From a virus (taxonomy: Duplodnaviria; Caudoviricetes): a stretch of DNA of 64,000 nucleotides. The position numbers and the translations under genes are program-made. Positions 7,600 to 36,779 of this stretch are shown piece by piece (within the stretch, counting starts at the first letter, position 1; each line of letters opens with the position of its first letter). The stretch spans positions 148 to 64,147 of the IMG/VR virus record IMGVR_UViG_3300036793_000047, one strand, 5' to 3'. The notes below the pieces were generated by a model. It did not search any database. It was not told the DNA's origin and worked only from the letters and a program-made list of their open reading frames with translations.

Positions 7600-8143
7600 C
7601 GCTGCCCCCTCGGCATTTAGCGAAGCATGAGCCGTCAGCGCTCAGCGAGCCCCTGCAGCTCTGGCACACCTGAAAGCCCGTCTCCGGGTCGTGTCCGTGC
7701 GGCGAGTTGCCGCCGAAATGCGAGTGCCGGACTGTGACGCCGTCGTCAGTGCCGTGCTCGTGCGCGTGCCCGCTGATCTTGCGCCAGTCGACGACCGGGC
7801 GCGGCGCTGGGTGCAGCTTCGCGTCGTGCTCATCTCTCGACGTCAGCAGCACTGGCACGAGACAGACACGGCACTCGACAAACACTGCGCCCGGCGAGAT
7901 CGACCGCCAGCGCTCGCTGTCTCTCACAGGCTCATCCTTCGCTCTCAGCGCTGCGGCTGCAGCGAGCACGTCATCAGCGAGCAGCAGCAGCTCGTCGCGC
8001 TCGACGACGTCAGCGGGGTGCATCATCGACGGATCATCGCCCATCCAGTTCGTGAGGATCGCGCGATCTTCAGGGCGCGTGTAACCCTGCCGGATGCACC
8101 ACAGCAGCCATGCGATCTGCTGCCTGTCTGTCGTCGCGCTCAT
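7592..8143 (-). CDS. Hypothetical multi-domain Cys/His protein
   Basis: 183 aa, coupled start. Confidence 0.55.
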   Translation of the reverse strand: MSATTDRQQIAWLLWCIRQGYTRPEDRAILTNWMGDDPSMMHPADVVERDELLLLADDVLAAAAALRAKDEPVRDSERWRSISPGAVFVECRVCLVPVLLTSRDEHDAKLHPAPRPVVDWRKISGHAHEHGTDDGVTVRHSHFGGNSPHGHDPETGFQVCQSCRGSLSADGSCFAKCRGGSDG

Positions 8144-8619
8144 CCCCAGCCTCGCGTCCTGATCACGCGCAGCACGTACGCAGCGAACGCGTCGCGCTCA
8201 GCGTTCGTGCGCAGCGACGACGCGATCATCACGACCGGTGTCAGCGCGTCGTCGAGCGCGTCACGCTTCGCAGCGTTCGCCTCGGCTCGCATCCGCGCAT
8301 TGCGCGAGCGCGCGATCTTGTCAGCTGCGCACCAGCGCAGACGCCGGTCATGCTGCTCGTCGTCGTCATCAGGGTCACCGACGTACACCGGCTTGCCGAA
8401 CAGCGATACCCCGCCGTCTGGCTTGCGCACGATCTCAGCGCGATACGTGCCGCCGATCACCGACCCGGCTAGCTTCGACTTCGCGAACGTCCATTCGCTG
8501 CCGTCCGGCCCGATCCAGCAGTAGCGCAGCGACTCGTTCTCAGCGAGCCTCACCCCGCCCCATCGCCACAGCTCGTGCTCGTGCTCGACAGTCTCGCTCG
8601 ACGTCTCAGTCTCGCTCAC
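8140..8619 (-). CDS. Hypothetical protein
   Basis: Start reassigned to GTG 8619, preceded by GGAGAGAAGG (8628-8637). Confidence 0.6.
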   Translation of the reverse strand: MSETETSSETVEHEHELWRWGGVRLAENESLRYCWIGPDGSEWTFAKSKLAGSVIGGTYRAEIVRKPDGGVSLFGKPVYVGDPDDDDEQHDRRLRWCAADKIARSRNARMRAEANAAKRDALDDALTPVVMIASSLRTNAERDAFAAYVLRVIRTRGWG

Positions 8620-30823: not shown

Positions 30824-31579
30824 ATGCCCCCCGAACTGCCCCTCGCCGTTCAGCGCGCACGAACCGGCGCGCTCATCACCATCGCTGCGCTGACAGCTGC
30901 TGCAGCGCTCGCTTCGTTCGCTGAGTCATACCGCGGGCTGCTCGACTGGGCGCTCGCGCACAGCCTGCCCCTCGGCTGGGCGATCGTCGCCCCGCTCATG
31001 GTTGACGTCTTCGTCGCAGTCGGCGAGCTGTCGCTGTTCGTGCTCGTGCTCGACGGGTTCAGCTGGCAGCAGCGCATACCCGCGTGGCTGATCTCGATCG
31101 TCGGGCTCGCAGCGTCGATCGCAGGCAACGCCGGCCACGTCTGGACGCTGAGCATCGCGACACGCGTGACAGCTGCTGTGCCGCCGGTCGCTGCCGCAGC
31201 TGCGCTCGCTGTCGCGCTCGGGCTACTCAAGCGCGTCATGGCCGGACCGAAAGCTAACCCGGACACGACGCAGCTGCCGGACACAGCTGAGCCGGTCACT
31301 GTGCCGGACATCGTCGAGCCGGACACGCGGCCAGCGTCCGGCAGCGTCCCGGACAGTCCGGTCGTCGTCCCGGACATCAGAGTGCCGGACGTGCCAGCAG
31401 TCAGAGTGCCCAAAGTGCCGGACGTCAAGGTGCCGGACGTCTCAGCTCAGCAGCTCCGCGCGATCGAGCTGCTGACTGCGCGACCAGACATGACCGGCGC
31501 TGACCTCGGCCGCGCTCTCGGCGTGTCCGACCGGCAGGGCAGGCGCGTGCTGAACGCGCTGAACGGCAGCCGGCCATGA
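30824..31579 (+). CDS. DUF2637 (Spd-like) membrane protein with Pro-Asp repeats and C-terminal HTH
   Basis: Four TM helices (ASFAESY..L..WA...PLMVD...SIAGNAGH...AAVPPVA), PD repeat linker, MTGADLGRALGVSDRQGRRVL HTH; ATG 30824 after GGAGAGAAGG. Confidence 0.7.
   Translation: MPPELPLAVQRARTGALITIAALTAAAALASFAESYRGLLDWALAHSLPLGWAIVAPLMVDVFVAVGELSLFVLVLDGFSWQQRIPAWLISIVGLAASIAGNAGHVWTLSIATRVTAAVPPVAAAAALAVALGLLKRVMAGPKANPDTTQLPDTAEPVTVPDIVEPDTRPASGSVPDSPVVVPDIRVPDVPAVRVPKVPDVKVPDVSAQQLRAIELLTARPDMTGADLGRALGVSDRQGRRVLNALNGSRP
31256..31440 (+). repeat. Nine direct CCGGAC repeats (candidate clt / TraB recognition sequences)
   Basis: CCGGAC at 31259, 31277, 31304, 31319, 31349, 31370, 31385, 31418 and 31433, all on the same strand and in frame. 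Confidence 0.6.
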
Positions 31580-31878
31580 GCACGACGATCGTGTACGCGG
31601 CGATCGCCGTCGTCGGCATACTCGCGTCAGGTTACGCAGCAGCGTTCGTGACGCGTCAGGTTAGATCACAACGTGACTACGCAGCCCGGCTGCACTGGGG
31701 AAACGAGCCTGGTGACCGTGTGGCACAGTCACAGCCGGTGCTGCGACCTGCACTGACGCACAACGACCCGAGTGACGGTCACAGCGCTGTCACAGGCGAG
31801 CCACAAGCGATGTCACAGCTAGCCGTCGCTGTCCGTGCGGCTCGCAGGTCCAGAGCACGCGCTGTGGCTGATGACTAG
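31576..31878 (+). CDS. Single-TM membrane protein
   Basis: 100 aa with an N-terminal TM segment; last rightward gene. Confidence 0.55.
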   Translation: MSTTIVYAAIAVVGILASGYAAAFVTRQVRSQRDYAARLHWGNEPGDRVAQSQPVLRPALTHNDPSDGHSAVTGEPQAMSQLAVAVRAARRSRARAVADD

Positions 31879-31955
31879 CGACAGGACTGTGCGCCCGCCT
31901 ACGCCGATCCGGCGTGTCGGGTACTGATACGCGATATTCACGCAGACAGACGACG

Positions 31956-31990
31956 AGGGCCGGGCTAGACGAAGACGTCAGCCCGGCCCT
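31956..31990. terminator. Hairpin between convergent transcription units
   Basis: AGGGCCGGGCT-13nt-AGCCCGGCCCT perfect 11-bp stem. Confidence 0.5.
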
Positions 31991-32010
31991 TAAAAACGGC
32001 TCAGCGACGC

Positions 32011-34020
32011 TCAGGGACGCTGCGCGAAGCGATACCGCGCGCCGACGCCCTGGCCCGTGCGCTCGATCGTCCCGCCCTCGATCTCAGCCTTTAGCCAACG
32101 GTGGATCGTCTCGCGCCGGACGCCCATGTTTTCCTTGCGCAGCACAGCCTCGATCTCGACGACAGACAGCCCGAAGATCGGCCGCTCCCCGAGCAGCGAG
32201 AACATCCGCGCCTTGGGATCCGGCTTCGCGCTCGCCATTCCCTCAGCGGACATGATGGCCGCGAAGTCTGCAGCTGTCGTGTCCGCGACCGGCTTGACGT
32301 CCGTCCGCGTGACCGTCGCAGTGCTCGTGCTGTCCGGCCCGGACGCGACGACGTCCGCAGCGGACAGTCCGGCATGCTGAGCGGCCAGCCGCTGATACAG
32401 CGATGACCGCTCCCACCGTTCTGTGTAGTCCGCGCCCATCGCAGACGCTGACAGCGCGTCCGGCCCTGGCCGCGTGTGTCCGGCTACCCGCGCTAGCTCG
32501 TCGATGCGCTTCGCGTCGCTGTCGTTCTCCGGGTCTAGCCGGTAGAACCGCAGCGGCATCGGAGACGACCGGCCCGGCTTCCAGACGATCGCTGAGCCGG
32601 GGTGCTGCAGGCCGGCGAGCAGCCGCGCAGCTCGCGTGTCGTCAGCGACGATCGAGCGCGCGTCAGCTTCAGTCGCGACGCCCAGCGCGAACCGCAGCTT
32701 GCACTGCGACTTCAGGTCACCCGAGCCGAGCATCGTCACCGTCGCGCGCTGCGTCGCCCATATCGGCATCACAGCTTCAGACCGGCATTTGCGGGTGATG
32801 CGCGTCGCGACAGCTGTCATCGTCGCGTTTGACGTGCCGTCACCCTGCTCGCTGCGGGGCACGTCTGAGCCGAGCACGTCAGCGATCTCGTCAGTGATGA
32901 GCACGAACTGCGGCATCGCAGGCGTCGGCTTAATCTTGCTGCCGCCGATCAGCGACTCGCCGCGGGCGGTGATCACTCTGTCGATCGCGCGCAGCATGAC
33001 CTCAGTCTCTTGCCGGTTCGTCGCGACCCAGTCGATAGCGGGGCGCGGGCAGTCGCCGCGGATCCAAGGCATGATCCAGGGGGCGAACAGCCGGCCGCCC
33101 TTCAGGTCGACGCCGAGCACGACGACGTCAGGGCAGCGCGTCAGCTGCGCCATCAGCACGTTCAGGAAATTCGACTTGCCCGCGCCGGTCACGCCGATGA
33201 CGAGCGCAGCGACTTCGCGCAGCAGCACGCTCGCGACGTCGCCGTTCGACTGCACGCCGATGTCGACGGGCTGCGTGATCGTCAGCAGATCGCCGGGCGA
33301 GCACGGCGGGAACGGCACGTCGACAGACAGAATGTCTTTCGTGTCCAAGTGCATGAACGCTTCGCCGGCGTGCCTGCTCTGCGTGAACGACACCGAGTTA
33401 GCCGGCAGGCGCAGCGCAGTCGCTACGCCGTCCGGCAGCTGATGCAGCGTTTTCAGCGTCACTCTCCCCGATCTCGGCAGCCGTAGCTTCACTGTCGCCC
33501 CCGCCCTTCCCTCGTCGACGCTCAGACAGCGCACGCCGTCAGCGCCGAGCCTGGCTAGCACGTCTTCGTACCGGCGCAGCATCGCCAGATCCGGTCGTGC
33601 TCCCCCGTCAGTCAGCTCGTCGAGATATGCGCCATACGCCCGTACTGTCGCAGCTGTGAGCAGCGCAGCCGGCACGGCTAGCTCAGCGATCGCGACGCCT
33701 GACCACACGGTGTATACCCGTCCGACGCCAAGAAACGCAGGCAGATGATCAAACCGCGCGTGTATCGCCCACGCCGCGAGCAAGATCGCCCACCCGGTCA
33801 CAGCTCGCGCCATGTGCATCGAGCGCGTGACAGCTTCAGTCGTCGCGATCGCTGCGCCGCCTAGGACGAGCACAGCCAGGTCCGGCATCCACGCATGCAC
33901 GTGCGCTGCAGACGCGCCGGCTGTCCCGGCAAACGTCAGCACGCACGCGAGCGCGCAGCTCTCCGCGACGAGCCCGGCGTGACCGGCTTTGACCGGCTTA
34001 CGACTCGTGACGCTGCTCAT
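32011..34020 (-). CDS. traB: TraB-like FtsK/SpoIIIE dsDNA translocase (actinomycete conjugation type)
   Basis: N-terminal TM helices; Walker A GVTGAGKS; VDLKGG; RPAIDWVAT; Walker B LITDEIA; WATQR; C-terminal winged helix (LSVVEIEAVL...RETIHRWL). Confidence 0.75.
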   Translation of the reverse strand: MSSVTSRKPVKAGHAGLVAESCALACVLTFAGTAGASAAHVHAWMPDLAVLVLGGAAIATTEAVTRSMHMARAVTGWAILLAAWAIHARFDHLPAFLGVGRVYTVWSGVAIAELAVPAALLTAATVRAYGAYLDELTDGGARPDLAMLRRYEDVLARLGADGVRCLSVDEGRAGATVKLRLPRSGRVTLKTLHQLPDGVATALRLPANSVSFTQSRHAGEAFMHLDTKDILSVDVPFPPCSPGDLLTITQPVDIGVQSNGDVASVLLREVAALVIGVTGAGKSNFLNVLMAQLTRCPDVVVLGVDLKGGRLFAPWIMPWIRGDCPRPAIDWVATNRQETEVMLRAIDRVITARGESLIGGSKIKPTPAMPQFVLITDEIADVLGSDVPRSEQGDGTSNATMTAVATRITRKCRSEAVMPIWATQRATVTMLGSGDLKSQCKLRFALGVATEADARSIVADDTRAARLLAGLQHPGSAIVWKPGRSSPMPLRFYRLDPENDSDAKRIDELARVAGHTRPGPDALSASAMGADYTERWERSSLYQRLAAQHAGLSAADVVASGPDSTSTATVTRTDVKPVADTTAADFAAIMSAEGMASAKPDPKARMFSLLGERPIFGLSVVEIEAVLRKENMGVRRETIHRWLKAEIEGGTIERTGQGVGARYRFAQRP

Positions 34021-34361
34021 ATCCCCCTCGCTTCCAGATGGGGCGCGCCGGCCCCGTGTCGCGGCGTCGCGCGCATGCCGTACAAGTACACGCTCGGCTC
34101 GCAGTGCTCGATCGCAGCAGCTTCAGCTGTCATCTTGATCAGCAGCTGATACCACTCCGGTTCCATCACCCAGCACGCGCCAGCTGATTTGTCAGCGTGA
34201 CTCGACGTCGCGACGTGCCAGATCAGATAACGCTCGATCGCGTCTTTACCGAGATCTGACCAGCCGGTAGCCGGCAGCATCGGCAAGATCCGCCACGGCT
34301 CGGGCGGCTTGCGCTTGCGCTGCAGCGGCCAGCGCGACTGCAGCCGTTCAAACGCGCTCAC
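34017..34361 (-). CDS. Hypothetical protein in the transfer operon
   Basis: 114 aa, coupled on both sides. Confidence 0.55.
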   Translation of the reverse strand: MSAFERLQSRWPLQRKRKPPEPWRILPMLPATGWSDLGKDAIERYLIWHVATSSHADKSAGACWVMEPEWYQLLIKMTAEAAAIEHCEPSVYLYGMRATPRHGAGAPHLEARGI

Positions 34362-35095
34362 GGGATGATCCTCTCCTGCTCTGGCTCGCTCACACGCTGG
34401 CGCAGCACCGGGGCAGCGACCGGCAGGCCGGGCACCGGCTCGGGCGGCGGGATGCGCACGGGCTCGTCTTCGATTGTCCGCTCGATCGGCTCGTGCTCGA
34501 TCTGCGGCCGGGGCAGCTGCTCGGGCAGCCAGGCGATCTGCGGACGGCGCACGATCGGACGGCCAGTCATCACCGGGCGGCGCACAGCTGACGCCTGACT
34601 GACGATCCGGCCGCCGCTGCTCCTGCGCGTCTGATGCCGGTACACAGCGAACGCAGCAGCGCCGGCTGCGGTGATGATCGCGAGCACGCGCAGCAGATCA
34701 GGCAGCACGACCCACGCCGCGACAGCCCCGGCGGGCACGGCCAGGCCGCGAACGACGAGCGCACGCGAGCGTCGCCGTGCCGGCAGTCCGGCTGACAGCT
34801 TCCGGCTGCGACGAGCCACCCGATGCCGCGCGATCGTCGCCCGAGCTCCTGACAGCTTCCGCAGCCCGACAGTGCGCGTGACCGGCGGCAGCCGGTAGTC
34901 ATAGCACAGCACTGTCAGGTAACCGCGCCAGCCGTGGTTATAAACGTCACCGTACTGATCGACAGATGCGAGCAGCCCGACTGTCCACTGCCCGCCCCAC
35001 TGCCGCGCCAGCGACCGGGCGAGCGCGCAGTTACGCGCCGAGCGGCGCTGACCGCCCGCCCGGTCCATGAAACTGATCTGAGTGTCGAACGCCAT
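34358..35095 (-). CDS. Membrane protein in the transfer operon
   Basis: Central TM hairpin, Pro-rich tail. Confidence 0.55.
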   Translation of the reverse strand: MAFDTQISFMDRAGGQRRSARNCALARSLARQWGGQWTVGLLASVDQYGDVYNHGWRGYLTVLCYDYRLPPVTRTVGLRKLSGARATIARHRVARRSRKLSAGLPARRRSRALVVRGLAVPAGAVAAWVVLPDLLRVLAIITAAGAAAFAVYRHQTRRSSGGRIVSQASAVRRPVMTGRPIVRRPQIAWLPEQLPRPQIEHEPIERTIEDEPVRIPPPEPVPGLPVAAPVLRQRVSEPEQERIIP

Positions 35096-35098
35096 CGC

Positions 35099-35386
35099 TC
35101 AGTCCGTCAGCCACATGTCGTGCTGCTTGGAATGCGTCGCTGCGACCGTCTCGGCCGGGTCGTGCAGCCCGCCGGCTGCTGACGCCAGCTCGTGCAGCGC
35201 TTCGACGACCGGCGCTTGTATCGGGTCCTCTTCCATGCCGGACGCTGCTGCGTGCAGCGCGCTGCCCAGCTCAGTGAACAGATCCGGCAGCGCTTTGAAA
35301 AACGCGTCGGCCTCTGACCTGCTCTGCGGCCGGAAGCCGGCCAGCTGCTGCTGTACTTGCTCTATCACTGCGTCGATTGCGGCCAT
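35099..35386 (-). CDS. Nested in-frame 95-aa helical protein (TraB-linked accessory type)
   Basis: Internal ATG 35386 preceded by CGAGAGAAGG (9/10 match to the genome's start motif); MAAIDAVIEQ...HSKQHDMW. Confidence 0.5.
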   Translation of the reverse strand: MAAIDAVIEQVQQQLAGFRPQSRSEADAFFKALPDLFTELGSALHAAASGMEEDPIQAPVVEALHELASAAGGLHDPAETVAATHSKQHDMWLTD

Positions 35387-36541
35387 GCCTGTTTTCCTTC
35401 TCTCGGGGATCGTGCGCCCGTTCTTAGCGACTAGGCGCAGCTTCGGCTTTGGCGCTGGCGCGCCAGGTTTAGCCGGGGTCGTGCTCTTGTTCGGCTGCGC
35501 TGGCTGCGCAGGCTGTGCGGGCTTCGTCGCACTCGTCGCTGTCTTCGACGGGTGCAGCCGGCCGATCAGTCGTTTGCTGCCAGACGCGACGATCAGACGA
35601 CGAGCCGGACGCGTGCGCAGCAGCCGGGGCAACGGCTTCACAGCTGCAGCTGCTCGACGCATCCTGCGACGCTGACGCCACGACGGGCGCTTGCTCGTCG
35701 ACAATCCGGCTGCAGCTGCACCGGGCAGCGGGCGTCGACGCCGAGACGGCATCCATCGCGGTCGACGAGTCGACGCTGCTCTCGTCGAGCCGGGGCGCGT
35801 CCGGCTGCCCGGCCGGCTGCTCTTGCCCGTCGACGAGCCGGGACGCGACGACGAGCTGCCGCCGCGCGAGCGGAACGGCAGACCGAACCGGCGACCGCCC
35901 GAGCGACCCCCGCTGCGACCGCCGGGGCGCGACGAGCTACCCGGACGCGACGAGCCGGTGCGGCTGCGACCGCCGAACGGGCGCAGCAGCGACCGCCCGC
36001 CCGAGCGACTACCCGGACGCGACGACGAGCCAGCTGGACGCGACGACGAGCCAGCTGGACGCGACGAGCTACCGCCACGGCTGCGCCCACCCGGCCAAGA
36101 CATACGCCGCCCGCCGCTCGTCCCAGCTCGAGGTTTGCCCGCGGCAGCGGGCTGCGACTGTCGACCGCGCGCTGCGTGTGGCATGCGCGACGCGTGGAAT
36201 GGCAGCCGGTGTGACGAGCTGCGTCGAGCCGGTGCCGGACTGTACTGAGCTGCTGACTGCTCGCGGTTCGATCGACGTGCCCGGCGCGGCCCGTACCCCG
36301 GTGGGTAAGCGAAGTGCCGCCGCACATGCGGCAGCCGCCACAGCACGAACAGCAGCAGCACAGCGCCGGCTGCGATCGCGAGCACGACGAGCGCTGTCGA
36401 GCCGCCCAGGAAGTGCACGCCCGCGCCGGTCCCGGTCGCAGCTGTGCCGCCGAGCAGCGCCCAGCGACGTCCAGTCATGACTTTCGCCGTCGCAGCTACC
36501 GGCGTCGGCGTGTCTGTCGTCTCAGTCTCGTTAGCTGTCAC
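35099..36541 (-). CDS. Membrane-anchored transfer-accessory protein: TM hairpin, R/S/G low-complexity linker, helical C-terminal domain
   Basis: GTG 36541 with RBS; WALLGG...VLAIAAGAVLLLFVLW; GSSSRP repeats; C-terminal GFRP...LPDLF...P...VVEALHE domain. Confidence 0.55.
   Translation of the reverse strand: MTANETETTDTPTPVAATAKVMTGRRWALLGGTAATGTGAGVHFLGGSTALVVLAIAAGAVLLLFVLWRLPHVRRHFAYPPGYGPRRARRSNREQSAAQYSPAPARRSSSHRLPFHASRMPHAARGRQSQPAAAGKPRAGTSGGRRMSWPGGRSRGGSSSRPAGSSSRPAGSSSRPGSRSGGRSLLRPFGGRSRTGSSRPGSSSRPGGRSGGRSGGRRFGLPFRSRGGSSSSRPGSSTGKSSRPGSRTRPGSTRAASTRRPRWMPSRRRRPLPGAAAAGLSTSKRPSWRQRRRMRRAAAAVKPLPRLLRTRPARRLIVASGSKRLIGRLHPSKTATSATKPAQPAQPAQPNKSTTPAKPGAPAPKPKLRLVAKNGRTIPERRKTGMAAIDAVIEQVQQQLAGFRPQSRSEADAFFKALPDLFTELGSALHAAASGMEEDPIQAPVVEALHELASAAGGLHDPAETVAATHSKQHDMWLTD
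35831..36073. repeat. Coding tandem/dispersed repeats (21-bp GGACGCGACGACGAGCCAGCT x2 plus partials)
   Basis: 36015-36035, 36036-36056, partial 36057-36069; encode GSSSRP(A)G units. Confidence 0.6.
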
Positions 36542-36747
36542 TAGCCCGCTCCCGTCCCGTTGCGGTTGTCCGCAGTGTACGGGATACGCGCGCATTCCCG
36601 CTGTACGTGCGGAGACGCGTTTCGGCAGGTTGCACGCTCCCTGCGGTCACCCGTGAGCTGGGCTGGCGTTCAGGACTGCCCGAAGACGAGCACACGCGGC
36701 AGGCTGTCGATCTTGTTAGAAACGGCCTCAGAGCCGCGCGGGCATGC

Positions 36748-36779
36748 AAAAAACGGGGCCGCTCCGCAGAGCGACCCCG
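36748..36779 (-). terminator. Rho-independent terminator closing the late/lysis operon
   Basis: On minus: CGGGGTCGCTC-TGCG-GAGCGGCCCCG then TTTTTT. Confidence 0.75.

Follow-up and report, generated by a model that had tools for sequence, protein, structure and literature searches.

The window, a 64,000-nucleotide stretch of DNA, comes from an uncultured soil actinomycete phage that carries a membrane DNA pump together with a helper gene, both kin of those that move DNA between hyphae for Streptomyces plasmids. A phage with such a pump is already on record, and the window is another example, without the supposed whole conjugation kit. We infer, with moderate confidence, that pump and partner form a phage-borne two-gene DNA-translocation cassette of the mycelial-actinomycete plasmid type, which would move double-stranded phage DNA across septa or envelopes. 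Virion and lysis genes (terminase, portal, protease, capsid, tape measure, and endolysin) are present in the window, and the module sits directly after the lysis cassette in a transcription unit separate from the lysis genes. The features considered here are the following:

30824..31579, plus strand: DUF2637-family membrane protein with a C-terminal HTH, convergent with the ATPase gene
31241..31440, plus strand: candidate clt B, ten CCGGAC copies inside the DUF2637 linker, proposed separately by the first-pass annotation
31576..31878, plus strand: 100-aa ORF with an N-terminal hydrophobic segment, convergent with the ATPase gene
31728..31819, plus strand: candidate clt A, four same-strand 8-mer copies in 90 bp (GTCACAGC three times, GTCACAGG once)
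31957..31989, no strand assigned: 10-bp G+C-rich hairpin between the convergent transcription units, read from the sequence
32011..34020, minus strand: ATPase, 669 aa, a TraB-like single-domain FtsK/SpoIIIE-family dsDNA translocase (family scans, AlphaFold model, tree)
34017..34361, minus strand: 114-aa soluble ORF, GC3 0.77, translationally coupled on both sides
34358..35095, minus strand: 245-aa ORF, hydrophobic region at about 112-152, GC3 0.81, good coding signal
35099..36595, minus strand: partner protein, 498 aa, with a helical domain found upstream of the ATPase in related loci (HMM matches)
35384..35405, minus strand: possible internal start that would yield the helical domain as a free 95-aa protein, CGAGAGAAGG upstream of the Met404 ATG
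36754..36779, minus strand: strong intrinsic terminator (11-bp stem and T run) closing the lysis/HNH operon just upstream of the module

The TraB-like ATPase and its operon

All ORFs described by the first-pass annotation are present, and its start at 36541 for the 498-aa protein is an in-frame GTG. Read 5' to 3', the minus-strand genes encode proteins of 498, 245, and 114 aa and the 669-aa ATPase; the first junction is a 3-nt gap, and the last two are start/stop overlaps.

The ATPase matches Pfam FtsK_SpoIIIE at 24.2 bits and phrog_31069 with an E value of 1.7e-40, and its best NCBIfam match is plasmid_TraB, at 67 bits over profile positions 127-626 of 639, a score far under the curated equivalog cutoff of 800 bits. 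In the AlphaFold model (mean pLDDT 86), an N-terminal helical membrane bundle (about 12-157) leads into a small beta domain; the RecA-type motor spans about 250-545, and after a disordered linker (564-581) comes the C-terminal winged helix (602-665), consisting of three helices and a beta-hairpin. The predicted architecture is TraB-like, and the top Foldseek matches of the model are FtsK dsDNA motor structures (E 2e-16). The Walker A residues (G276, G279, G281, and K282) and the RPxIDWVAT motif are kept in 30 homologs. In a maximum-likelihood (ML) tree of motor domains, the window ATPase family (support 99/96) is sister (98/93) to the partner-type ATPases of plasmids and phages (100/99), and both form one clade with canonical TraB (96/94), apart from FtsK, EccC, and other paralogs; a quick tree agrees with this careful ML tree on the placement in the TraB superclade. 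The earlier assignment of the ATPase to the TraB type is borne out by the tree and the NCBIfam match, and the protein is truly related to the transfer pumps of actinomycete plasmids, not an FtsK or EccC.

In the 498-aa partner, residues 57-91 form a single N-terminal hydrophobic segment or membrane anchor, a low-complexity linker rich in Ser, Arg, Gly, and Pro comes next, and about 100 aa at the C terminus (Met404-498, DNA 35102-35386) make up a conserved domain, modeled as four helices with a core pLDDT above 90. At least 30 related loci have this domain immediately upstream of the ATPase, and the anchor is kept in loci L002 and L050-L052. An HMM of the domain matched proteins of the Frankia plasmid pFQ12 and of two Streptomyces plasmids (pDSM40587 and the NBC_01102 plasmid) as well as pZL12.72c, Hiyaa gp101, and P1312_064 at 37-70 bits, every one of them encoded directly upstream of a TraB-like ATPase, whereas it gave zero matches among control neighbours. 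The domain may possibly also be made as a free 95-aa protein, as CGAGAGAAGG at 35405-35396 is a one-mismatch copy of the phage's start-associated motif and is placed 9 nt upstream of the ATG at 35386-35384 (Met404). In L055, L057, L003/L004, and L086, the gene called is a short stand-alone partner of 96-114 aa.

The other two operon genes are orphans, absent from every relative. The 245-aa ORF, inserted between the partner and ATPase genes, had no match in Pfam, PHROG, NCBIfam, or PADLOC and no homolog in about 50 related loci; the 114-aa ORF had no Pfam, PHROG, or NCBIfam match and no homolog in the related loci. Chromosomal 114-aa proteins beside the ATPase were rejected as homologs of the latter, as they match the partner's helical domain.

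Relatives on plasmids and phages

The DUF2637 protein of the window consists of about four hydrophobic helices, a Pro-Asp-rich linker, and the C-terminal HTH; it scores 23.1 bits against a Pfam cutoff of 22.8, its HTH matches are weak, and its start is preceded, at a distance of 6 nt, by an exact GGAGAGAAGG motif. It is 60% identical to the DUF2637 protein of L002 and 31% identical to that of L052. DUF2637 genes adjoin TraB-like genes in the plasmids pFQ12, pDSM40587, NBC_01102, and NBC_01237 and in L052, L055, and L088, and the family often appears as a neighbour of such pumps on plasmids. An equation of DUF2637 with SpdB2 could not be made; DUF2637 is missing in phiC31 and pIJ101.

The order DUF2637-partner-ATPase recurs in pFQ12, the NBC_01102 plasmid, and the viral contig L052, and the pump-partner pair is kept across plasmids, the plasmid-phage pZL12, isolated phages, and many soil phage contigs. 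The window belongs to a 10-protein subclade whose examined members lie on phage-like contigs with the same layout. All plasmid records (47/47) and all isolated phages (7/7) with relatives come from mycelial actinomycetes. In MAG chromosomes, close relatives also occur as bare partner-ATPase pairs amid housekeeping genes, so what the pair does may have nothing to do with element transfer.

The source of pZL12/phiZL12 is reportedly Zhong et al. 2010, J Bacteriol 192:3747 (GenBank GQ919031). [quoted passage not shown] Its pZL12.71c is a TraB-like ATPase in the sister clade of the window pump, and pZL12.72c, directly upstream, has the window partner's helical domain (43.5 bits). However, identity between the two ATPases is only about 25%, ParA/ParB and a plasmid replicon are present in pZL12 (PMC4487206) but were not found in the window record, and pZL12 is without the DUF2637 gene that the window has. 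The novelty of the window had been overstated: this conjugative plasmid-phage was already described (cited in PMC3583192), and spread of phage DNA by Spd-like proteins had been proposed by Thoma et al. 2015 (PMC4447253).

The operon of the Frankia plasmid pFQ12 (AY027524) encodes a DUF2637 protein that passes the Pfam cutoff, a 76-aa ORF, a 524-aa protein, and an ATPase. This ATPase is the best plasmid match of the window ATPase (33% identity), the 524-aa protein upstream of it ends in the window partner's helical domain (47.6 bits), and GACGCAA stands in five direct repeats at the stop of the ATPase. Unlike the window, with its virion genes, the 22-kb plasmid pFQ12 had none in the region examined; the literature on pFQ12 yielded no characterization of transfer.

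Among actinophages, an "FtsK-like DNA translocase" is annotated in the Streptomyces Hiyaa group (Hiyaa, Spocter, Keanu, and Galactica) and in Thermobifida phage P1312, all with mycelial hosts. In Hiyaa (gp101/gp102) and P1312 (P1312_064/063), the helical-domain partner gene lies directly upstream of the ATPase, as in the window, and Hiyaa gp98 is a sub-threshold DUF2637 membrane protein; these ATPases belong to the sister clade, outside the window's own. Roles in replication or segregation are suggested, without tests, in their published annotations (PMC4569894, PMC11536984).

The canonical TraR-TraA-TraB/Spd systems (pSVH1, pIJ101, pCQ3, and pSSPS4.7a) belong to Streptomyces plasmids and AICEs. 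Canonical TraB shares with the window pump its architecture (membrane anchor, motor, and winged helix) and superclade, and in both cases the gene directly upstream of the pump is a small one. In contrast, TraA has no detectable kinship to the helical partner, the window ATPase falls under the TraB equivalog cutoff, and the window is without a GntR regulator, SpdA, SpdB, or KilB. The window cassette is not the classical pSVH1/pIJ101 TraB-Spd kit.

Candidate clt repeats

In canonical systems, clt repeats usually adjoin the pump gene (PMC3583192, PMC4447253). Candidate clt A is located 190-280 bp past the ATPase stop, between the convergent genes, and is among just 12 sites in the 64 kb where an 8-mer appears three times over a span of 100 bp or less; four of these 12 tight clusters fall inside the 5.8-kb module. 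Across the window the plus strand has 14 copies of its word and the minus strand none, a bias that is borderline after multiple testing, and the simple 7-mer count is equalled by 18% of control windows. The cluster was not found in relatives. In candidate clt B, nine of the ten CCGGAC copies encode Pro-Asp, and Pro-Asp pairs are coded CCGGAC in 9/9 cases in the DUF2637 linker versus 15/31 elsewhere; a duplicated peptide repeat would account for this candidate equally well. At the same place L055 has another repeat, TGGCGCG, and L002 none. A clt site in the window is unproven: the two clusters are each a candidate only, and neither is kept in relatives.

The 100-aa ORF is a doubtful gene, with a GC3 of 0.63 versus about 0.8, no homologs in related loci, and no Pfam, PHROG, or NCBIfam match. 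The hairpin at 31957..31989 is likely a bidirectional terminator.

Possible roles of the cassette

We favor DNA translocation by the two-gene cassette because of the placement in the TraB family, the model architecture, the partner-domain HMM matches, and the pZL12 precedent, together with the synteny, the phage-like contexts, the mycelial hosts, and the 4/12 repeat clusters in the module. The membrane-anchored pump would act as a TraB-like hexamer, with the four-helix protein as its partner and the DUF2637 membrane/HTH protein alongside, and would assemble at a septum or a contact between hyphae, within the membrane. The pump's winged helix may load onto a repeat site in the phage DNA, for which the GTCACAGC cluster just downstream of the gene is the best candidate, and the motor would then drive the double-stranded DNA into the adjoining compartment or hypha. 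If so, the phage could spread inside, or between, mycelia independently of virions.

The first-pass annotation, which is partly supported overall, had gone further and proposed a complete Streptomyces-type kit (TraB, Spd, and clt) in an intact genome, a conjugative phage-plasmid that a lysogen would hand on, as a replicon, to a different mycelium. The TraB-type pump, its regular DUF2637 neighbour, and the repeat clusters close by fit this proposal, but we consider it unlikely. Searches with NCBIfam, BLAST, and HMMs turned up no homolog of SpdA, SpdB, KilB, or TraA, and two of the four operon genes are orphans, so that the kit is not whole. The record is classed as linear and 73% complete by CheckV, and an intact genome is therefore not established; it showed neither an integrase nor a ParA, plasmid Rep, or repressor, its sole ParB-like gene is coupled to a glycosyltransferase, and integrases are likewise absent from two relatives that are 97% and 83% complete. 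A resident replicon for transfer is thus not evident, and a lysogenic or plasmid state of the phage is not established.

It is similarly improbable that the pump acts like FtsK, SpoIIIE, or SffA at sporulation septa, clearing or moving phage DNA into spores or viable compartments. The closest solved structures are indeed FtsK motors, the hosts are sporulating mycelial actinomycetes, developmental genes such as WhiB and Lsr2 occur on related phage contigs and an ssgA-like gene in ΦNon1 (PMC5431353), and the bare chromosomal pairs hint at a possible cellular role. However, the pump clusters with plasmid transfer proteins, apart from chromosomal FtsK, and the nearest characterized locus, that of pZL12, is reported as a transfer locus (PMC3583192).

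Less probable again is a module directed at competitors or the host, which would exclude incoming plasmid, AICE, or phage DNA or aid takeover or lysis through Kil-type membrane toxicity. In Streptomyces plasmids, traB is toxic when unregulated (the Kil-Kor system; PMC4447253), the lysis cassette directly precedes the module, and a NUDIX gene (Pif type in AICEs) adjoins it in L088; against this stand the separate transcription unit, the conservation of both a sequence-reading winged helix and a dedicated partner, and matches to known defence systems that are weak, P-loop only, and at most 22 bits.

A minimal type VII-like secretion pair, in which the ATPase would export a small helical protein, is very improbable: an approximately 100-aa helical protein beside an FtsK-family ATPase resembles the WXG100/EccC pairing, and the EccCa profile matches weakly (31 bits), but the partner-domain alignment has no WXG motif, a fold search with that domain gave generic helical matches only, EccC is the outgroup of the tree, and the pump has one ATPase domain, not three, followed by a C-terminal winged helix typical of DNA-reading translocases.

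The pump and its relatives

The first-pass reading of the module genes was confirmed: four tightly coupled minus-strand genes converge on a plus-strand DUF2637/HTH gene. They form a unit of their own, which follows a strong intrinsic terminator. An additional 100-aa ORF on the plus strand is probably not a gene.

Module features
36779-36754: strong intrinsic terminator, closing the late-region unit through the HNH gene
35099-36595, minus strand: 498-aa partner protein, first gene of the module
34358-35095, minus strand: 245-aa ORF, orphan
34017-34361, minus strand: 114-aa ORF, orphan
32011-34020, minus strand: 669-aa ATPase (the pump), last gene of the module
30824-31579, plus strand: DUF2637/HTH gene, convergent with the ATPase gene

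The ATPase has an FtsK/SpoIIIE-type RecA motor with intact Walker A and B; across 30 homologs, residues G276, G279, G281, K282, and E378 do not vary. The Pfam FtsK_SpoIIIE model barely recognises its P-loop region (24.2 bits). Its best NCBIfam match was plasmid_TraB (NF041214), which aligned across nearly all of the profile, as far as position 626 of 639, with 67.4 bits; since the equivalog cutoff is 800 bits, the protein is a distant TraB relative and not an equivalog. The phage family phrog_31069 matched it over its full length (E 1.7e-40). The AlphaFold model (mean pLDDT 86) comprises, from the N to the C terminus, a helical membrane bundle (helices 12-157), a small beta domain, the RecA-type motor, a disordered linker, and a winged helix, the last an H-H-H-beta-beta unit at residues 602-665 with pLDDT >90. 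The closest solved structures were FtsK dsDNA motors (E 2e-16), followed by the pCW3 coupling protein TcpA, EccC, and HerA.

To place the motor domain, a maximum likelihood tree was built from 15 family members, seven ATPases of partner-type plasmids and phages, two canonical TraB proteins annotated by PGAP, the ATPase of the Streptomyces NBC_01237 plasmid, and pIJ101 Tra; it also took in the FtsK proteins of E. coli and Polymorphospora, as well as EccC and further Polymorphospora paralogs. The window family was a clade (99/96) and the partner-type plasmid and phage ATPases (100/99) were its sister group (98/93); together with canonical TraB they formed a clade supported at 96/94, with FtsK and EccC outside. 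A quick tree agreed with this careful one; pIJ101 Tra sat on a long branch, so that its placement is unreliable. The phylogeny that the first-pass annotation had proposed thus favors a TraB-type pump over FtsK or EccC. A type VII secretion EccC/EssC protein can be dismissed, as there is one motor domain here versus three in tandem and EccC is an outgroup in the tree. We keep a segregation role as an alternative for this pump.

Homologs of the ATPase at 37-50% identity are numerous, and the window family splits into two subclades. The subclade containing the window ATPase (99/99) has 10 members; the four examined (P0002, P0003, P0008, and P0010) come from phage-like contigs 62-140 kb long, and in two of these the lysis genes, the module, and a convergent DUF2637 gene are arranged as in the window. 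The second subclade consists of copies in metagenome-assembled genomes (MAGs), mostly from Streptosporangiaceae, plus one cultured Polymorphospora, and its settings vary from bare pairs, through a pair with an HNH gene and small orphan ORFs behind it, to a clear phage (locus L088). In the MAG chromosome loci L003, L004, and L086 a 112-114-aa helical-domain protein and a TraB-like ATPase stand as a bare pair amid housekeeping genes (Ppx-GppA, nitroreductase, and sugar-utilisation genes), with no other mobile-element genes within 10 kb; such pairs could be domesticated or remnant cassettes. Some chromosomal family members (P0059, P0062, L035, L037, and L039) are 950-1180 aa long, and a precomputed LAGLIDADG_3 match (PF14528) in P0059 and P0062 suggests an intein or homing-endonuclease insertion in these ATPases.

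Among about 50,000 phage records, the only isolated phages with relatives were the Streptomyces phages of the Hiyaa group, the Thermobifida phage P1312, ZL12, and PIS136. All 47 plasmid records with relatives came from mycelial actinomycetes, as did every one of these isolated phages. No Nonomuraea record was among the plasmid matches; a plasmid-phage of that genus, ΦNon1, has been described (PMC5431353), and the portion of that account available to us does not mention a TraB-like gene. A single-sequence scan of viral contigs gave no match, and an alignment-based scan gave five loci.

A four-helix partner domain upstream of the pump

In the relatives, the protein encoded next to the ATPase matched neither the 114-aa nor the 245-aa ORF of the window, but the last ~100 residues of the 498-aa protein. 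In at least 30 related loci, the gene just upstream of the ATPase encodes this helical domain, in some as a short protein (96-140 aa) and in others as the C-terminal part of a longer, membrane-anchored one (450-610 aa). A profile HMM made from the domain was searched against very small sets of neighbor genes, and it matched the gene upstream of a TraB-like ATPase in each of the following elements.

Matches of the helical-domain HMM
Frankia plasmid pFQ12: 47.6 bits
Streptomyces mobaraensis pDSM40587: two copies, 59.7 bits
Streptomyces NBC_01102 plasmid: two copies, 69.9 bits
pZL12 (Streptomyces plasmid-phage) gene 72c: 43.5 bits
Phage Hiyaa gp101: 40.1 bits
Phage P1312_064: 37.4 bits

Control neighbors, pIJ101 Spd and KilB, and canonical TraA gave no match. 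Although the E-values come from tiny sets, the bit scores, as profile scores, are high enough to stay significant in large databases. The window thus has the arrangement of the pZL12/pFQ12 cassettes, a TraB-like ATPase gene directly preceded by a gene whose product ends in the four-helix domain, and at the level of sequence comparison these matches establish that the module is homologous to the pZL12-type cassette. pZL12 is a Streptomyces plasmid that also forms infectious virions, and its conjugal transfer is reported to require a major tra gene together with two neighboring ones (Zhong et al. 2010, cited in PMC3583192; PMC4487206, PMC7157519). Both pZL12 and the window have the partner-domain gene upstream of the ATPase, whereas the DUF2637 gene is found in the window and not in pZL12. 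Canonical Streptomyces plasmid loci (L092, pSSPS4.7a; L093, pCQ3) have instead a GntR regulator, traA (168-182 aa), and traB; TraA takes the position of the helical partner, but similarity between the two is undetectable (hhalign probability <1%).

The domain is modeled as four helices with a core pLDDT >90 and belongs to no Pfam family. A fold search returned only generic helical hairpins and coiled coils (Z ~8, the background level), and a look-alike search of the Atlas returned viral and Actinomycetota proteins of 94-119 aa, all of them unnamed. In the complex prediction for the ATPase (residues 145-669) with the partner domain, the score was 0.00, which counts neither for nor against contact.

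The minus-strand stretch 35384-35405 holds a one-mismatch copy of the start-associated motif (CGAGAGAAGG) and, 9 nt after it, the in-frame ATG of Met404, the residue at which the conserved helical domain begins. Because of this motif, a free 95-aa form may also be made from the 498-aa gene, which suggests two partner isoforms, one membrane-anchored and one free. The word GGAGAGAAGG, with up to one mismatch, occurs 14 times versus 2.5 expected. Thirteen of the copies are in the nonstructural region (window 8628-30817), one of them 6 nt upstream of the DUF2637 start; the fourteenth is inside the 498-aa gene, and the late region has none.

Companion genes, phage background, and possible role

The DUF2637 gene beside the window's pump is a further feature that we looked for in a partner-type cassette. 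The same family stands beside the pump in pFQ12 (within the same operon), pDSM40587, the NBC_01102 and NBC_01237 plasmids, the viral contig L052 (in the order DUF2637, partner, ATPase), and the phage-like contigs L002, L055, and L088; this makes it a common neighbor of the pump. It is present on 330 Streptomyces plasmid records and absent from pZL12 and P1312, and tblastn of the window protein against plasmids and phages gave no match. Equating DUF2637 with SpdB2 was rejected: SpdB of pIJ101 does not belong to the DUF2637 family, which is missing from pZL12 and P1312 as well, and there is no DUF2637 match in pIJ101 or in phiC31, which is said to carry an SpdB2 homologue (PMC4447253). In L088 (Actinobacteria MAG GCA_017354215.1), NUDIX, WhiB, 497-aa, 196-aa, TraB-like ATPase, and DUF2637 genes stand in this order, and genes for portal, S78 protease, and HK97 capsid come after them; the NUDIX (Pif-like) gene beside the pump recalls, by analogy, an AICE-like organization inside a phage.

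The first-pass annotation saw an apparently whole conjugation kit. No module neighbor matched SpdA, SpdB, KilB, or TraA in NCBIfam (E up to 0.1), and BLAST with pIJ101 SpdA, SpdB, and KilB found nothing among the window neighbors; with the helical-domain HMM in agreement, the kit as described did not hold. What stood of the proposed neighbor and synteny checks was the occurrence of the partner domain and DUF2637 on plasmids, while the 245-aa and 114-aa ORFs stayed orphans and no Spd, KilB, or TraA relative appeared. An exclusion or Kil role is another alternative for the module, on which PADLOC gave weak P-loop matches only (≤22 bits).

The viral record has 64,147 bases, nearly all of them in the window (GC ~67%), and is classed as linear with a CheckV completeness of 73%, so that the supposed intact genome was not confirmed. 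Its siphovirus-type late region runs on the minus strand from ~63.3 kb down to 38.3 kb and encodes terminase, portal, protease, major capsid protein, adaptor, a 969-aa tape measure, a 1394-aa tail protein, endolysin, and peptidase, after which come a PLD-like gene and the HNH gene. The major capsid protein has a distant likeness to those of cluster J mycobacteriophages, and no near-identical DNA was found in the phage collection. Recombination genes resembling RecE/RecT are found in the left arm, together with an AAA_25 helicase-like gene and a ParB-like (ParBc) gene that is coupled to a glycosyltransferase.

These genes bear on the alternative that the element is a complete conjugative phage-plasmid. 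As candidates for plasmid replication or partition genes beside the virion genes, solely the ParBc-type protein and the AAA_25 helicase-like protein were found, in a record from which about 27% of the genome may be missing. Six-frame searches of this record gave no integrase or resolvase match (PF00589, PF00239), none of 20 scanned ORFs matched a Rep family, so no RepSA/RepAM/Prim-Pol module was seen, and neither ParA nor a repressor was detected. The lysogenic or plasmid state that had been proposed was accordingly not borne out, and an AICE was rejected, there being neither integrase nor replication module in the 73%-complete record. Tyrosine integrases were present in two of five related viral records and absent from a 97%-complete and an 83%-complete one.

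Judged from sequence and phylogeny, the module is a phage-borne member of the partner-type branch of the TraB dsDNA-pump family. We put at about even the chance that it moves phage dsDNA across septa or cell envelopes. A more tentative proposal, which we consider rather unlikely, is that phages of mycelial actinomycetes, also those without lysogeny genes, use the cassette of pump, partner, and DUF2637 protein as a movement apparatus. Once one hyphal compartment was infected, the pump would take up newly replicated phage dsDNA at a repeat site particular to the phage and drive it through septal cross-walls to neighboring compartments or touching hyphae, and the infection would spread without receptors or virions, much as with plant-virus movement proteins. 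The four-helix domain would then be the universal adaptor for this branch of pumps.

A cassette that moved phage DNA between hyphal compartments or mycelia would give the tailed phages of filamentous bacteria a second, virion-free route of infection, and views on phage host range, on how plaques form, and on gene flow among soil actinomycetes would be affected. The concept of such spread, put forward for Spd-like proteins and phage DNA by Thoma et al. 2015 (PMC4447253), and one experimental example, pZL12, were already known. Added here are a conserved core, common to plasmids, a plasmid-phage, and phages, of the pump and a previously unnamed four-helix partner domain; a distinct pump subclade whose examined members are on phage-like soil-metagenome contigs; the finding that the cassette does not include the classical Spd proteins; and cultured proxies, namely the Hiyaa group on S. 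lividans and pZL12.

Candidate clt sites

The two densest short-repeat clusters of the window fall in the module, both within low-complexity coding stretches. Of the window's 12 clusters in which an 8-mer recurs three times within 100 bp, 4 are in the module. Two clusters are candidates for clt, the cis repeat site read by TraB pumps.

Candidate clt clusters
31241-31440: CCGGAC, 10 copies, inside the DUF2637 linker, encoding Pro-Asp repeats; flagged separately in the first-pass annotation
31728-31819: GTCACAGC, four copies within 90 bp, at 190-280 bp beyond the ATPase stop

CCGGAC encodes all nine Pro-Asp pairs of the DUF2637 linker versus 15 of 31 elsewhere. At the same position L055 has a different repeat, and L002, the closest syntenic relative, has none. 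The stretch with the GTCACAGC cluster, between the convergent genes, is probably noncoding, and this cluster is the better placed of the two candidates. Neither cluster is conserved in relatives or clearly beyond chance or coding repeats, and the clt stays a candidate. Tight repeats lie right at the pump stop in pFQ12, the related loci L051, L053, and L054, and P1312, and a simple 7-mer repeat count downstream of ATPase genes was not significant for most relatives.

All 14 occurrences of GTCACAGC in the window are on the plus strand. This bias was rejected as a KOPS-like signal because several unrelated words are equally polar and it is thus not specific. The near one-stranded words were TCAGCCCG (18:0), CAGCTTCA (13:0), GCTGACC (21:0), CTTCAGC (26:1), and GTCACAGC itself; their one-strandedness holds for either gene orientation, and coding direction does not explain it.

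In P1312 (locus L007), a very dense GGTCCGG-type array lies just downstream of the translocase (~8020-8600), with 23 copies in the locus, and spans two overlapping annotated ORFs on opposite strands (061 and 062); Hiyaa gp100 contains GGTCCGG six times within the gene. The GGTCCGG repeats of both phages are candidates for either cis sites or coding repeats.
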